Shown piece after piece: positions 18,653-33,275 of a stretch of DNA of 39,839 bases. This stretch comes from a virus. Its lineage: Duplodnaviria > Caudoviricetes. Under the pieces are notes generated by a model, which was not told the DNA's origin, ran no database searches, and saw nothing but the letters and a program-made list of their open reading frames with translations. The DNA lies in IMG/VR virus record IMGVR_UViG_3300030095_002782, positions 1 to 39,839 of that record. The stretch is one strand, 5' to 3'. The number at the start of each line of letters is the position of its first letter. Position 1 is the stretch's first letter. Made by a program: the position numbers and the translations under genes.

Positions 18653-20512
18653 TTAGTGTGTTTCTGCCCAGTTATTACCTATCTTATATTCGCCGTCCAA
18701 TGGGCATTTCATCTTTAAATAACGACCAGCTTCCCTTATTGCAATACATGCTGTTTTACCAAATTGATCTGCAAGTTCTGGTTTAACTTCCGTTTGAAAC
18801 TCATCATGTATATTAGCTACAAATGTATAGTCTTGCACAGCTCGCCATTTATTACGTGCTAGATGTGTGTTTAAACCTACTAATGCTTGCTTCATTACAA
18901 CTGCTCCCGCCGATTGTAACAGCGTGTTAAGCGCTGAATGTTCAGAGCGTATCGGTAGTATGCGACCGTCTAATCCTTTTAAAAATCCACTACGTTTGAC
19001 CTTCGCTTCCACGGCTTTTTTCAACGCTTTTAAAGCGGGAAGAGATGTAAGGAATCGCTGTTTTAACGCACGTCCTTCTCTTGCTGTACCACCTACAATC
19101 TCTCCAATCTTTGCGTCGCCAGCACCGTATAAAAATGCGTAGATAAATGTCTTCGCTTGATCGCGTGTTTTTAATCCAGCCGCTTGTTGGTTGACCGTGT
19201 GAATATCTCCTTCTAATAGTTGACGTCCATATTGTCCACCGTCGAACCCAGCAAGGTAATGCGCAAGCATACGAAGTTCAAGACCACTCGCATCACAACC
19301 GACAAGGACGTAACCCTTACGCGCTATGAATAACTCACGACACTCCTTACCGTATGGTGCGCGTACTGCTGGTACTTGTGCGATATTAGGATAGCTATGA
19401 GTACAACGACCTGTGACTGTTCCGTTGGTGTTTACCTTACCGTGTATACGTCCTTTACGAACTCGCTTAATCCATGCATTGTCGCCTTCGGCTAACATAC
19501 CTAGACGTTTAACAACCATTAAGTATTCTAGTAGAAGATCAGCCGACGGATGCTTGACGCTTTTAAGCACGGCTTCATCGATCTTTGGTTTACCATCGGG
19601 TGTGAAGTGTACAGGTTTCCAACCTAGTTCTTTTAATCGATCTGCTATCTGATCACGACTGCCTGGATTAAAAGGTATGGACTTAGTTTTGTTACCTAGC
19701 TTTGTCGCCTTGTTAGCGAGTGCTTGTACTTGTCCTTCTTCTTTAAGCATCTTCTTCAACGCCGCTTTAGTCTCCCCGAAGTATTGCTTCCCGTCAACTT
19801 CTACTTCCCATCCTTCGGGTGTCTTCATCTCTTCAACAACAGGTGGAAACGTCTTCTGTAAATCGTCGAGTAGTTCAGCACGTCGGGTAGTCAATACTTG
19901 TATTAACTTGTCCGCCTTATCTTCGTCAAAAGCAAACCCAGCAAGTTCCTGTTTACGCATTAGCGTAGCAAAGAAGTGTTCAAGATTTAACATTCGATTA
20001 TCAGGTTCCTGTTTTTTTACATACGCACCTACAGAATGCGTCACCATTACATCGCGCTCACAATACTTACGCATCTCTTCCGTATACACATCGAAGTTAT
20101 CGGAATCAAACTCCATTTTAGACACGCCTAAACGATTACCCCACGCCTTTAAACTATGCGATCCCCATAGGTCTTTAGGAAAATCCTTACGTACCATATC
20201 GAGTTTAAACAAATCAGAATGTATGCACCTTGTCGTTACTGCTGTGTCTAATACACGCGCTCTAGGCATCCACCCATATAACTTAGCAAGTGCTGGTATA
20301 TCAAAGCCAATGACGTTGTGACCCACGATTGTTTCAGCGCTGTCGAGTAAGCGTAAACCTTGTTGCATACTAGTGTCTGAAAAAGTCAACATCTGTTGTT
20401 TAATCGGATTATAAACGCTCAAGCAATGAACAATTTTTAAATCATCAAGCGTTACGAAGTCTTCCAATCCGTTCGTCTCGATGTCGAAATACAATGTTTT
20501 GTTCATGTTCAT
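18653..20512 (-). CDS. polA: Family A DNA polymerase with 3'-5' exonuclease (T7 gp5-like)
   Basis: FDIETNG, GHNVIGFD, DASGLELR, AKTFIYAFLYG, NIHDE; ATGA overlap with the upstream stop. Confidence 0.97.
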   Translation of the reverse strand: MNMNKTLYFDIETNGLEDFVTLDDLKIVHCLSVYNPIKQQMLTFSDTSMQQGLRLLDSAETIVGHNVIGFDIPALAKLYGWMPRARVLDTAVTTRCIHSDLFKLDMVRKDFPKDLWGSHSLKAWGNRLGVSKMEFDSDNFDVYTEEMRKYCERDVMVTHSVGAYVKKQEPDNRMLNLEHFFATLMRKQELAGFAFDEDKADKLIQVLTTRRAELLDDLQKTFPPVVEEMKTPEGWEVEVDGKQYFGETKAALKKMLKEEGQVQALANKATKLGNKTKSIPFNPGSRDQIADRLKELGWKPVHFTPDGKPKIDEAVLKSVKHPSADLLLEYLMVVKRLGMLAEGDNAWIKRVRKGRIHGKVNTNGTVTGRCTHSYPNIAQVPAVRAPYGKECRELFIARKGYVLVGCDASGLELRMLAHYLAGFDGGQYGRQLLEGDIHTVNQQAAGLKTRDQAKTFIYAFLYGAGDAKIGEIVGGTAREGRALKQRFLTSLPALKALKKAVEAKVKRSGFLKGLDGRILPIRSEHSALNTLLQSAGAVVMKQALVGLNTHLARNKWRAVQDYTFVANIHDEFQTEVKPELADQFGKTACIAIREAGRYLKMKCPLDGEYKIGNNWAETH

Positions 20513-20913
20513 AAATAGCGTACTACTTTCTTCCAATATGCTTGTGTTTCTGCTTTGTGGTAGCCATTAGGTCCACCGTTATGAATACGCGCTAAGACTT
20601 CCCAAGTTGAATCGTTTGGCGAGTGTCTGTTCCAGTAATTCATTATCACTTGTTCAGCATATACTTGATCAACACACATCGCCCAAGTGCCATTAATTGT
20701 TTGGTCAAAGTTATAAGCGTCGATCCAATAGCCAAAACTTATTTGATAAGGACCGATTGATCGACCGCTATCACCGACAGCATAAGGCGCATCATAAGCA
20801 CCACCACTTTCGACAAGACGGATCGCTCGAAAAAGCGTTGCATAATCAGAACGACTGTGACGAGGTTTCGGTAGTATTGTTATTAGTTTTAAGAAACGAG
20901 TTATCATGTTCAT
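20509..20913 (-). CDS. Lysozyme-superfamily peptidoglycan hydrolase, i-type/destabilase-like
   Basis: AIRLVES, GPYQIS..YWIDA and ARIHNGGPNG motifs. Confidence 0.75.
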   Translation of the reverse strand: MNMITRFLKLITILPKPRHSRSDYATLFRAIRLVESGGAYDAPYAVGDSGRSIGPYQISFGYWIDAYNFDQTINGTWAMCVDQVYAEQVIMNYWNRHSPNDSTWEVLARIHNGGPNGYHKAETQAYWKKVVRYL

Positions 20914-25882: not shown

Positions 25883-25907
25883 ATTTTCGTTGTTGGTGAG
25901 TGGTTGC

Positions 25908-26180
25908 GGTCACGACATTGTCACGCCGTTACATCTACTAAGAAATGTACGAAGAGATATTATGTCAACTAAATTATTGAATTGATTGAATAAGTTAAGA
26001 AAAAAACTCGTGACCTGTACAACAAAAGGAACCCCTTTTAAGTCCCTTGTGTATACCAATTTCACCACGCCCGCTGGGCTGTAAGTGTTGGTCAGTAAGG
26101 ACTTGGGTGTATCACCTAGAATTGCTTGAGTCACGAGATTTCTTTCTTTTTCTATGTTTTGGTCACGACTTGGTCACAAC
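25908..26180. mobile_element. attP region with putative integrase arm-type repeats
   Basis: GGTCACGAC/TGTCACGCC at 25908/25919, TCGTGACC at 26008, GTCACGA at 26130, GGTCACGAC/GGTCACAAC at 26161/26172, all flanking a tRNA fragment next to int. Confidence 0.8.
26036..26074 (-). other. attP identity block: 5' half of tRNA-Leu(TAA), not a complete tRNA
   Basis: Minus strand GCGGGCGTGGTGAAATTGGTATACACAAGGGACTTAAAA gives the acceptor 5' strand, D-arm, anticodon stem 5' strand and CTTAAAA loop, then diverges. Confidence 0.88.
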
Positions 26181-30320: not shown

Positions 30321-30599
30321 ATGAGAGCATATCCAATATGGAATCAAGTTGACGCTTGTATCTATCAATCAAATAAATCATTTGGAGCAAAACAAGTTTC
30401 CAATATAAATGTTAAAGTTGGCACATCTGCACAGAATAGTCATGACTTCTTAACGCATTGTACTACGCATAAAGAGCATGAAAATGGAGATAAAGAGTTT
30501 CGCTTTTATGTTGATGGAAAATGTATCAAAAGAGTACTTGTAACAAAGAAAACACAAAAGCTTAAAAAACTATCTGTACGCGATATACCTAGAAAGTAA
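30321..30599 (+). CDS. Hypothetical protein (plus-strand operon gene 1)
   Basis: 92 aa, A-rich leader, no minus-strand gene here. Confidence 0.8.
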   Translation: MRAYPIWNQVDACIYQSNKSFGAKQVSNINVKVGTSAQNSHDFLTHCTTHKEHENGDKEFRFYVDGKCIKRVLVTKKTQKLKKLSVRDIPRK

Positions 30600-30606
30600 A
30601 AACATT

Positions 30607-30765
30607 ATGACAAGTAAAGAATATATAAAACGCGAGTTACTAAAACTTAAAAAATCTAAATACGCGTTAAAGGTCAAAATTATCGACAACGAAAACAATC
30701 AAACTAATTACATCAACTTAAACAAAGAATTAATAAAACAATTAAAAACAAATGAACAACGATAA
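30607..30765 (+). CDS. Small basic protein (52 aa), not in the ORF track
   Basis: MTSKEYIKRELLKLKKSKYALKVKIIDNENNQTNYINLNKELIKQLKTNEQR*. Confidence 0.7.
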   Translation: MTSKEYIKRELLKLKKSKYALKVKIIDNENNQTNYINLNKELIKQLKTNEQR

Positions 30766-30910
30766 AGATTTAACAATGCAAGATTGGTTTGAACGAGAAG
30801 AACGCGAATTAAGGCGATCAACTAAGTTCCGCTTGCAACTTTTATTAATACCAGTTGTTGCTGTGTTTGGTTGGGTCATTCTTTTGGCGTTAATGATTAA
30901 AAACAATTAA
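30752..30910 (+). CDS. Small protein with C-terminal TM helix (52 aa), not in the ORF track
   Basis: MNNDKDLTMQDWFEREERELRRSTKFRLQLLLIPVVAVFGWVILLALMIKNN*. Confidence 0.7.
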   Translation: MNNDKDLTMQDWFEREERELRRSTKFRLQLLLIPVVAVFGWVILLALMIKNN

Positions 30911-30917
30911 AATAATT

Positions 30918-31208
30918 ATGAACATTAAAATTAACGCTAGAGAAGATTCAATGGGTTGTTTAACTTTAACGCCAATTAAACAATCTTATATCGATCAAAT
31001 CATTGACTATCTAAAAGAGTTTAATGTCGATTCAGACGGTTCAGTATTCTTACAATTTGAAAGCGATATTGAATATTTTTATAACGATTGTAACGCACGA
31101 CAAAGGAAAGATATTCAATCAGGTTGGGGAGCGACTATGTTATTTGATGCATGGACATTTTTAACAATGATCGGTTGGGACGCAAACGAAGGTTTACAGC
31201 TTAAATAA
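30918..31208 (+). CDS. Hypothetical acidic protein
   Basis: 96 aa ORF in the plus-strand operon. Confidence 0.8.
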   Translation: MNIKINAREDSMGCLTLTPIKQSYIDQIIDYLKEFNVDSDGSVFLQFESDIEYFYNDCNARQRKDIQSGWGATMLFDAWTFLTMIGWDANEGLQLK

Positions 31209-31210
31209 TT

Positions 31211-31369
31211 ATGAAAGAAGGTGACACAATAGAATATAAAGACGACAACGGCGACAAATTGAAAGGTAAAGTTATATTGATATTTACTTCTCTATGCGGT
31301 CATAAATGCGTTCACATTAATAATTTCTTTCAAACTCGATTTGTTAAGGATGTAAAATTGATTCAATAA
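31211..31369 (+). CDS. Small protein (52 aa), possibly an SH3-like beta fold, not in the ORF track
   Basis: MKEGDTIEYKDDNGDKLKGKVILIFTSLCGHKCVHINNFFQTRFVKDVKLIQ*. Confidence 0.65.
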   Translation: MKEGDTIEYKDDNGDKLKGKVILIFTSLCGHKCVHINNFFQTRFVKDVKLIQ

Positions 31370-31494: not shown

Positions 31495-31523
31495 AAAAAA
31501 ACCATCGCGTTTAAAACGATGGT
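31495..31523 (-). terminator. Intrinsic terminator of the first early operon
   Basis: ACCATCG/CGATGGT stem followed by a 7-T run on the minus strand. Confidence 0.8.
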
Positions 31524-31553
31524 CTTGTTGTTGGTTGTTTGGCGTTTTAAGCT

Positions 31554-31775
31554 TTAAGAGTTAACATGGTACAAGTAATCCGCCCAAAACTTCGAGTCCT
31601 CGTTTGATGTGATTTCGTCTATCGTTTTTTTAATCTCGTTTATCTTATGCTCTACGCTACCACGCGTTGCTGTTGTCAAGATATCAAACTCACGAATAAG
31701 TAAATCTTCGTAATTGCGTTTTAAAGCTTTCAATTCTTTTAAAGTCATTAAATCGAGTTGTTTCATAATTTTCAT
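31554..31775 (-). CDS. Early hypothetical protein (helical)
   Basis: 73 aa ORF with the repeated leader. Confidence 0.75.
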   Translation of the reverse strand: MKIMKQLDLMTLKELKALKRNYEDLLIREFDILTTATRGSVEHKINEIKKTIDEITSNEDSKFWADYLYHVNS

Positions 31776-31802
31776 ATTGTTGTTTGTTTCGCGTTTAGAT
31801 AT

Positions 31803-32030
31803 TTATTCTGTTGCTGTGTGCCCTGTGTAATAAGCATTGTTATTCAGCCAATTTATCAGTTCTTTTTTAGTTGTAGGTATATATTCAGTTTCTACTTCAT
31901 CGCATGAATGCCCGCTATCTCCCGCGTTTTCTTCATAATACTTTAACGCTTTTTTCGCGTTTCTTTTCGCTTCAAGTTTGTTTGCATAATAGCATTTTCT
32001 TCCATCTTCTAAGGTCATGTATATTTTCAT
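31803..32030 (-). CDS. Early hypothetical protein
   Basis: 75 aa; PTTK.ELI.WLN motif; repeated leader. Confidence 0.75.
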   Translation of the reverse strand: MKIYMTLEDGRKCYYANKLEAKRNAKKALKYYEENAGDSGHSCDEVETEYIPTTKKELINWLNNNAYYTGHTATE

Positions 32031-32050
32031 AATTGTTGGTTGGTTCGCGT

Positions 32051-32317
32051 TTAAGCTTCTTCTATTAAGGCATAAGCTTTTTCTAGTTCTATCTGTTCGT
32101 TGATTTCTTTTTGTCGTGTAAGTTCTTTGATCTCGTTTTGATCATCTTCGTTTACAATATCACAAAAGTTTTCCATTGATCTGTCGTATTCTATCTGATC
32201 ATTTGTTAAATCGTTTGTACTTATTCGAGATAAAAAATCATGTACTCGCGTTTCTAAATCATTTTCATCTGTAGCGTAAAAGTAAAGGGAATCAAAATTA
32301 ATTTCGTATAGTTTCAT
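32051..32317 (-). CDS. Early acidic hypothetical protein
   Basis: 88 aa, 24 D/E against 8 K/R; repeated leader. Confidence 0.75.
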   Translation of the reverse strand: MKLYEINFDSLYFYATDENDLETRVHDFLSRISTNDLTNDQIEYDRSMENFCDIVNEDDQNEIKELTRQKEINEQIELEKAYALIEEA

Positions 32318-32345
32318 AATAATGTTGGTTTGGTTGGTTCGCGTT

Positions 32346-32642
32346 TTAAGCTTTAATCTCGTTTATAATTTCAAACGCTTCTGAAATCTTGTTTAGCTTT
32401 TTAGTCTTTTCTCGCAGTTCATAAATAACATGTTGCAAGATTAAATAATCTTCTTTTGCTATTGCTTGTAAAGCTTCCCATCTAGTGATGTTACAAAAGT
32501 TCTCACTATCAGCCCAACGATTGAAAATTTCAACGGGTTGTAGCTTTTCATTGACTTCTATTTCTTCAATGGTCTTAGGTTTTCTTAATTTCCAATAGCG
32601 TTTGATTGATGCATCCGATACTTGATAACTTGTTTTATTCAT
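32346..32642 (-). CDS. Early hypothetical protein
   Basis: Start MNKTSYQ preceded by AGGAGA RBS. Confidence 0.75.
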   Translation of the reverse strand: MNKTSYQVSDASIKRYWKLRKPKTIEEIEVNEKLQPVEIFNRWADSENFCNITRWEALQAIAKEDYLILQHVIYELREKTKKLNKISEAFEIINEIKA

Positions 32643-32869: not shown

Positions 32870-33241
32870 TTAATCTAATGGAATAAATTTAAGTGGATCA
32901 CTATATTGCTCGCCATTAATTTTTACTGAGTATCTACGCCCCTCACATTCAACTATATCGCCTTGATCGATGCGTTGGGCTTTTTCCCATTCCTTGCGTT
33001 CCGCTTCTAAACTTTCGGCTTTACCTTTATAATCAGCGGAAATAACTGAGCAATGTTGAAAACACGCAAGAAATTCCCAACCATTTTTAATCGTTCTTGA
33101 TTCCGCTTCTTTTGGACAATCACCATGTTTTAAAGCATATCCACGCGGAGTAACAAGTTCGATTTTGTTTGTGAATCTAAAAGAGCGGACAACAACTTGT
33201 TGACCATGAGTAAGATTTATAATTTCGTTTTTTAATTTCAT
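32870..33241 (-). CDS. First early hypothetical protein
   Basis: Start MKLKN after a CAACAAT leader, downstream of a promoter. Confidence 0.75.
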   Translation of the reverse strand: MKLKNEIINLTHGQQVVVRSFRFTNKIELVTPRGYALKHGDCPKEAESRTIKNGWEFLACFQHCSVISADYKGKAESLEAERKEWEKAQRIDQGDIVECEGRRYSVKINGEQYSDPLKFIPLD

Positions 33242-33275
33242 ATTGTTGTTTTGTTTGGAATTAATAATGATCGCA

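Follow-up and report, generated by a model that had tools for sequence, protein, structure and literature searches.

Gene content of the window

The virus record analysed here, called the window throughout, is a single piece of 39,839 bp with a 98-bp end repeat, and thus probably represents a complete, circularly permuted genome. Comparison with PHROGs identifies a T7-like gene set, i.e., RNA polymerase (RNAP), SSB, primase/helicase, DNA polymerase, portal, capsid, tail and terminase proteins. The runs that contain the window sequence are labelled as marine, seawater or viral metagenomes, and at least half of its words are present in only 3 of the 20 runs, two of which may be where the record came from.

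The RNAP is of the single-subunit type, and the gene of a tyrosine integrase (Int) is located just upstream of it; on the minus strand the order is int, a 39-nt sequence representing half of a tRNA, and RNAP (Table 1). Int retains R198, K223, H281, R284, H307 and Y316, all invariant across an alignment of 23 sequences, and we take these six residues to have the catalytic roles assigned by the R-K-H-R-H-Y scheme. The closest annotated phage RNAP is only 38.6% identical to that of the window, which indicates that the collection searched holds no close cultured relative. A 74-codon ORF that spans the attachment site has neither a start nor homology to support it.

Helix-turn-helix (HTH), MarR and repressor families were sought in 46 window ORFs with PHROGs and in 25 and 13 window ORFs with Pfam, and none was detected; the same databases indicate no MarR- or CI-like regulator adjoining int, and a diverged regulator could escape such searches. 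This agrees with a preliminary description of the same DNA, which had pointed out the lack of a recognisable repressor.

Elsewhere in the window, a small cluster of plus-strand ORFs without family matches (30321-31369) is found within the otherwise minus-strand early region. A 27-33 nt repeat upstream of several early genes (31516-31557, 31765-31806, 32021-32053, 32328-32357 and 33231-33263) is possibly a shared expression or recombination signal. A protein of the destabilase (i-type lysozyme) family is encoded at 20509-20913, between the primase/helicase and DNA polymerase genes (PF05497, E 2e-9).

Table 1. Features of the int-RNAP region of the window
Feature	Position	Strand	Basis
Tyrosine integrase, 341 aa	26152..27177	-	PHROG 1, E 4e-59; PF00589
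T7-type single-subunit RNA polymerase, 803 aa	23471..25882	-	PHROG 414, E 2e-223
attP core, 5' half of tRNA-Leu(TAA), nt 1-39	26036..26074	-	Match to bacterial tRNA-Leu(TAA)
Predicted 7-bp crossover overlap, the anticodon loop	26042-26036	-	Inference
Left (int-side) attP arm; (C/T)GTGAC repeats at 26178-26173, 26167-26162, 26135-26130	26075..26178	-	Repeats position-conserved in relatives
Right (RNAP-side) attP arm; inverted repeat at 26009-26014, tandem repeats at 25925-25920, 25914-25909	25883..26035	-	Repeat comparison
IHF-like motifs, right arm	25987-25970	-	1 mismatch each to consensus
Weak candidate promoter for the rebuilt tRNA: GTGACT, 17 bp, TG-n-TACACC; overlaps an arm repeat	26106..26134	-	Read by eye
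Post-core hairpin AAAAGG-GGTT-CCTTTT	26039-26024 (feature 26024..26048)	-	-5.1 kcal/mol, z -2.5
TTGACA, -35-like hexamer, 65-67 bp past the core	25963..25968	-	Invariant among phage-side arms

The half-tRNA core of the probable attachment site

With one mismatch, the 39-mer is identical to the first 39 nucleotides of full-length bacterial tRNA-Leu(TAA) genes. ARAGORN places the anticodon of the full genes at nucleotide 35, so that the match stops at the last base of the 7-nt anticodon loop. The score of the 39-mer against the tRNA half of bacterial genome G291 was 38 out of 39, compared with 24 for the next-best site in the window and 26 for the best of 100 shuffled windows. These matches and controls confirm the placement of the 5' half of tRNA-Leu(TAA) between int and RNAP in the preliminary description. 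A complete phage tRNA, considered there as a competing account of this region, is ruled out, as ARAGORN called 0 tRNAs in the window. When the phage half was joined in silico to bacterial 3' halves, a full tRNA-Leu(taa) was called in the resulting attR in four cases out of four.

Islands that displace the 5' part of a tRNA gene are rare. The Islander survey counts 159 of them among 3,919, against 3,760 with a 3' fragment (PMC4383910), which bears out the initial premise that 3' fragments are the common kind. In the anticodon-centred islands of this kind crossover is assigned to subsite A, the anticodon loop, and the displaced fragment is the 5' one, as in the window (PMC4383910). The evidence supports the view that the core is an attP of this rarer, 5'-fragment type.

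Additional evidence comes from related phages. The comparison set consists of 50 non-repeated contigs, the window included; L083 (the assembly of L003), L087 (a copy of the window) and duplicates of refetched contigs were excluded. A core is present in 42 of the 50, and its isoacceptor varies (TAA, CAA or CAG). The similarity to tRNA ends exactly at the end of the loop in 44 of the 49 core copies with flanking sequence, extends by one more base in 1 and by five in 4, and 24 different 8-mers are found next to the end of the match. Termination of the match at this point in 44/49 copies supports a crossover within the anticodon loop, as had been suggested for the window alone. The 39-mer itself is unchanged across relatives whose flanks differ. 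Four close relatives (L013, L015, L161 and L164) have lost the attachment site and retain an int that matches over its full length; the site is, therefore, dispensable.

Many close relatives also encode an 83-aa protein with a weak HTH_17 match (E 0.005) between the right arm of the site and RNAP (L003:3429-3680; also L004, L005, L006, L078 and L083). The window does not encode this protein, a possible excisionase or regulator.

Arms of the probable attachment site and promoter-like elements

The whole spacer of about 270 bp between int and RNAP resembles a lambda-type attP. CGTGAC sequences are paired at both ends of the spacer, and one inverted copy lies 21 bp past the core; five sites fall within 300 bp of the att region, compared with at most 4 in any of 200 shuffled windows. 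Their positions are conserved in relatives with integrases that are 62-99% identical. The (C/T)GTGAC repeats are putative arm-binding sites of the integrase; here, as with the IHF-like motifs, the labels assume the usual consensus sequences.

On the int side of the core, the TACACC hexamer of the weak candidate promoter for the rebuilt tRNA reads TATACT in L005 and TACACT in L081, and the candidate does not appear in the list produced by a consensus scan. On the other side, the hairpin following the core is present as first described; the T's ascribed to a T-run after it turn out to be part of the stem, and a run of seven T's is found about 18 nt further. A terminator scan reports an overlapping alternative stem of 9 bp (26048-26026), with 10 sites in the window against 7.0 +/- 2.8 in shuffled sequence. 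Of the 37 RNAP-side arms, only one, that of the window itself, has the hairpin intact (1 of 14 within the window's group); on the side of the cassettes described below, 4 of 12 arms have it. A conserved terminator is thereby rejected, and the proposal that the hairpin insulates RNAP is left unsupported.

The TTGACA hexamer has a different distribution. All 37 RNAP-side arms, which represent 28 distinct sequences, have it exactly, and none of the 12 cassette-side arms does, the contigs in this count being related rather than independent samples. The four relatives that have lost the attachment site keep TTGACA directly after int. There is no canonical -10 hexamer at 16-18 bp from it; at 17 bp one finds mostly TTnnnT, without the usual A. 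The element is not among the hits of the consensus scan for sigma-70 promoters, which gave 21 sites in the window against 24 +/- 4.4 in shuffled sequence and none in the att region. The invariance of the hexamer suggests a transcriptional element that would stay with RNAP after integration. Repeat and k-mer searches did not find a promoter motif for the phage RNAP, and RNA run X20 contains only short pieces of this region, with a gap over the right arm.

Bacterial matches and the search for integration junctions

The earlier suggestion to compare the 39-mer with bacterial tRNA genes met with partial success: there are tRNA-Leu matches with one mismatch, and the whole 39-mer has 0 exact matches in 185,579 bacterial genomes. 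The closest matches come from alphaproteobacteria. The one-mismatch form occurs in 22 of 46 genomes of the alphaproteobacterial family of G291 and also in Maritalea, and the variant found in the G291 family is an exact match for another subgroup of these phages. Nucleotides 7-39 are common to 44 genomes, which differ from the phage by 1-5 bases in the acceptor stem. Two classes were sampled more broadly; a tRNA-Leu within 2 mismatches was found in 6 of 401 genomes of the class of Maritalea and in 0 of 201 of that of Sulfuritalea. For the other isoacceptors of the relatives, the CAA half has one-mismatch counterparts in 2 of 5 genomes of the family and the CAG half in 0 of 5. Matches to tRNA genes provide only broad host assignments (PMC3861242). 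None of the 46 genomes of the best-matching G291 family contains a T7-like RNAP.

All twelve metagenome matches represent the free attP form, and there are no attL or attR junctions among the matches listed for 4 runs, in which contigs cannot link across the 39-nt repeat. Together with the lack of an exact host match and the existence of close relatives devoid of the site, this could be taken to mean that the attachment site is a vestige in a purely lytic phage. Such an interpretation appears extremely unlikely, given that the catalytic residues of Int are intact, the 39-mer is unchanged where the flanks around it are not, and the arm repeats hold their positions.

In a distant provirus, G449 (Int 41% identical), RNAP marks one end, and the opposite end comprises int, a tRNA belonging to the provirus and, next to these, a 3' tRNA half of host type.

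Several other bacterial sequences deserve mention. Bacterial genome G447 contains an unrelated element that interrupts tRNA-Leu(TAA) at the same loop, the overlap being 10 bp. The two tRNA halves in G447, L109 (C5 about 3447800) and L114 (C5 about 2324250), are unrestored and lie 1.12 Mb apart on opposite strands, presumably through inversion or misassembly; they adjoin an integrase-like ORF that is disrupted by an element of the IS481/IS3 type. Bacterial genome G429 encodes a 34%-identical integrase (L116:1500-2576), after which a tRNA-like sequence begins where the contig ends, possibly the attR of a related element.

Known integration systems and the predicted effect of integration on RNAP

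The arrangement of int, half-tRNA and RNAP is not unusual and is already known from T7-like cyanophages and pelagiphages. In T7-like cyanophages, four 39-bp attP motifs have been reported directly downstream of int, each corresponding to the first half of tRNA-Leu, and integration requires both int and attP (PMC8776855). S-TIP37 and P-SSP7 resemble the window in this position and length of attP and in having no repressor; they differ in host and tRNA sequence, and also in that integration is experimental there and inferred here (PMC8776855). S-TIP37 integrates, yet produced no lysogens from about 3e9 cells, and the benefit of transient integration is left open in the accessible part of that report (PMC8776855).

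All pelagiphage attP sites likewise lie between int and RNAP, and the host tRNA is complemented by the 5' tRNA part on the phage (bioRxiv 10.1101/410191). The published attL consists of host gene, 5' tRNA-Leu and RNAP, and attR of int and intact tRNA (bioRxiv 10.1101/410191). The same source reports integration of HTVC105P at tRNA-Leu(TAA). The layout of HTVC105P is identical to that of the window, with the 5' part of tRNA-Leu(TAA) ending just past the loop; HTVC105P and HTVC109P are distinct in having a MarR gene before int, where none was detected in the window, and Int of this pelagiphage group (HTVC105P and the HTVC019P type) is 35% identical to that of the window. The published junction reads, along with provirus G449, uphold the geometry that was initially proposed for the window, in which RNAP comes to stand behind the host promoter and the tRNA is rebuilt after int.

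On the same geometry the preliminary description built a lysis/lysogeny switch, in which integration would cut RNAP off from the early promoters of the phage and put it behind the host tRNA promoter, insulated by the hairpin and perhaps tied to growth rate. Recombination-based switches reportedly exist in mycobacteriophages; in BPs, immunity is said to be integration-dependent, with site-specific recombination serving as the lysis/lysogeny decision. In that kind of immunity, integration restructures the repressor gene (PMC10865867); attP of the window is instead intergenic, in the int-RNAP spacer, and the scans detected no repressor. The geometry itself and the lack of repressor and HTH families among the window ORFs scanned are compatible with a switch, as is the proposal that RNAP of phage LUZ100 depends on readthrough from upstream (PMC10134795).

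We nevertheless regard the switch as very unlikely, on several grounds. The hairpin that would insulate RNAP is almost never preserved. RNAP does not appear to be orphaned from promoters, as had been claimed, since TTGACA is on its side of the crossover in 37/37 arms and outlives the loss of the attachment site. With a strong host tRNA promoter upstream, RNAP should be transcribed rather than silenced. S-TIP37, although it integrates and is repressor-less, forms no stable lysogens (PMC8776855), which leaves the lysis/lysogeny part of the proposal unsupported, and the best-matching bacterial family has no T7-like RNAP in any of its 46 genomes. Given that RNAP probably keeps a host-type promoter element of its own on its side of the crossover, the promoter swap would be a by-product of integration and not a switch. 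Unregulated integration of the S-TIP37 kind and a switch would both fit the absent repressor, and the former has experimental support. A literature search, with most subscription papers outside its scope, returned no title that deals with a promoter swap as a switch in phages of the T7-like kind, and the word 'promoter' is absent from the accessible portion of bioRxiv 10.1101/410191; the idea of such a switch may be unpublished.

Cassette arrays in related phages

The window represents an empty form of the site. In seven of the 42 core-bearing contigs (L078, L121, L124, L133, L135, L138 and L159), 2-3 cores occur in tandem and are separated by integrase-less cassettes of 523-1,351 bp. The order in such an array is P arm, half-tRNA, cassette right arm, cargo, cassette left arm, second half-tRNA, P' arm and RNAP. 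Arm-like repeats are found at both ends of a cassette, and every cassette includes a perfect 39-nt half-tRNA of the same isoacceptor as that of its helper phage. The cargo often includes DNA methyltransferases (C5 and N4/N6), and there are also ORFs without an assigned function. Four more contigs end inside a cassette-type region, ahead of any second core, and were typed by the similarity of their arms, so that the class of just 8 among the 12 cassette arms is independent of their sequence. In L132 and L144, the core next to RNAP is preceded by a left arm of cassette type. No multiple 5' halves were observed among 76 more distant loci, so that the arrays may be limited to this clade.

The same cassette was recovered in separate assemblies (889 bp in L121 and in the first cassette of L159, L159c1; 523 bp in L124 and L135), and the same arms may enclose different cargo, namely a C5 methyltransferase in L078 and an N4/N6 methyltransferase in L079. 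A single base distinguishes the two cores of L078, which is what arrival of the second core together with the cassette would produce. In marine run X17, contig ends that match arms of the phage type and of the cassette type are found on either side of the core, contig depth not being a measure of copy number. Neither an integrase nor transfer genes were found in the 8 cassette copies, in which the best integrase match has E 0.094 and no integrase remnant was detected.

Each copy of the C5 methyltransferase ORF (L078:255-1313 and 262-1215; also in L001, L019, L084, L123 and L130) has a second long ORF that overlaps it in the +1 frame. This recalls two-frame methyltransferases such as M.EcoHK31I.

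Alternatively, the cassettes might no longer be moved by Int and spread by homologous recombination only. In that case they would be dead remnants, left either when the attP sites of related phages recombined with each other or when attP was duplicated and part of it then deleted. Consistent with this, the right arms of cassettes are homologous to those of phages, the same methyltransferase family is found before RNAP without a second core in L019, L084, L123 and L130, and no cassette has been seen outside a phage: there was no free cassette circle, and one cassette searched against the best-matching bacterial family was absent from 46/46 genomes. The left arms are difficult to reconcile with such an origin, as BLAST matched none of them to a left arm of a phage in the loci compared and their repeats are mostly in the opposite orientation. 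The same can be said of the perfect half-tRNA of the helper's isoacceptor in every cassette, and of the lack of a detectable integrase remnant. We therefore judge an origin as dead remnants to be rather unlikely, and favor site-specific uptake by the phage attachment site.

Among known mobile elements, the cassettes resemble CIMEs, the integrase-less elements flanked by two att sites that undergo accretion and cis-mobilisation when in tandem with an autonomous element at the same site (PMC5704250); phage-ICE tandems follow a comparable accretion logic (PMC13651849). The cassettes share the structural traits in the seven contigs: they lack an integrase, are flanked by two att sites and stand in tandem with an autonomous element of the same site. 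They are distinct from CIMEs in having a T7-like phage as partner and in forming an array in a free phage genome; in addition, they are 0.5-1.35 kb long, carry a 5' half-tRNA and are known from phage contigs alone. CIMEs can also reside by themselves in a host chromosome and derive from autonomous elements by decay, whereas the one cassette searched had no match in 46 genomes. In Tycheposon tandems, as far as they are described in the accessible source, each member has an integrase. Tandem arrays in Islander are required to have an integrase per member and a length of at least 2 kb (PMC4383910); the cassettes have neither and would be missed by such surveys. No cassette arrays are described in the accessible part of the pelagiphage account (bioRxiv 10.1101/410191), and we found no description of tandem cassette arrays in T7-like phages in the literature searched. 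What is new here is thus the cassette-capturing attP seen in relatives of the window, the int-RNAP layout of attP being already known. As a sequence structure the arrays are well supported; their movement by Int is putative.

Proposed mechanism and implications

Taken together, the data make it likely that the 39-mer is the core of attP, that crossover in the anticodon loop rebuilds the host tRNA, and that integrase-less cassettes such as those of the relatives enter and leave at this same site. Int would cross over in the anticodon loop of host tRNA-Leu(TAA), rebuilding the tRNA after int and leaving RNAP behind the host tRNA promoter and a half-tRNA. Integration is presumably brief and unregulated, as in S-TIP37. 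An array would arise when the phage integrates next to a cassette that is resident in the host tRNA gene and then excises at the outer cores, carrying the cassette off; the reverse order of events would leave the cassette in the host. Alternatively, a cassette circle might insert into attP.

A broader interpretation, which we put forward tentatively and hold to be somewhat short of an even chance, is that marine T7-like phages without a repressor retain int and attP as a platform for gene capture. Miniature elements devoid of an integrase, with arms of their own and a tRNA-restoring half, would accumulate at host tRNA-Leu and be picked up or dropped by transient integration, giving rise to an integron-like array of methyltransferases and other genes before RNAP. 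If true, this would explain integration without lysogeny, and it bears on the question, still open according to the available text of PMC8776855, of why lytic marine T7-like phages retain int and attP without forming lysogens. Should Int indeed move the cassettes, brief integration would give the phage a site-specific route to anti-restriction methyltransferases and to the seeding of genes at the host tRNA.

The int-RNAP interval also contains additional genes in more distant phages. In the cultured T7-like Mesorhizobium phage Lo5R7ANS (L172:719-3814), a restriction endonuclease, a methyltransferase, a full tRNA-Leu and RtcB are located between int and RNAP, indicating that this interval takes up genes elsewhere too; a repeated core was not found there. 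In the distant relatives L232 (4483-5800) and L240 (4514-4816), duplicated 3' tRNA segments of 30 and 55 bp are observed between int and RNAP, and these are possibly 3'-type versions of the arrays.
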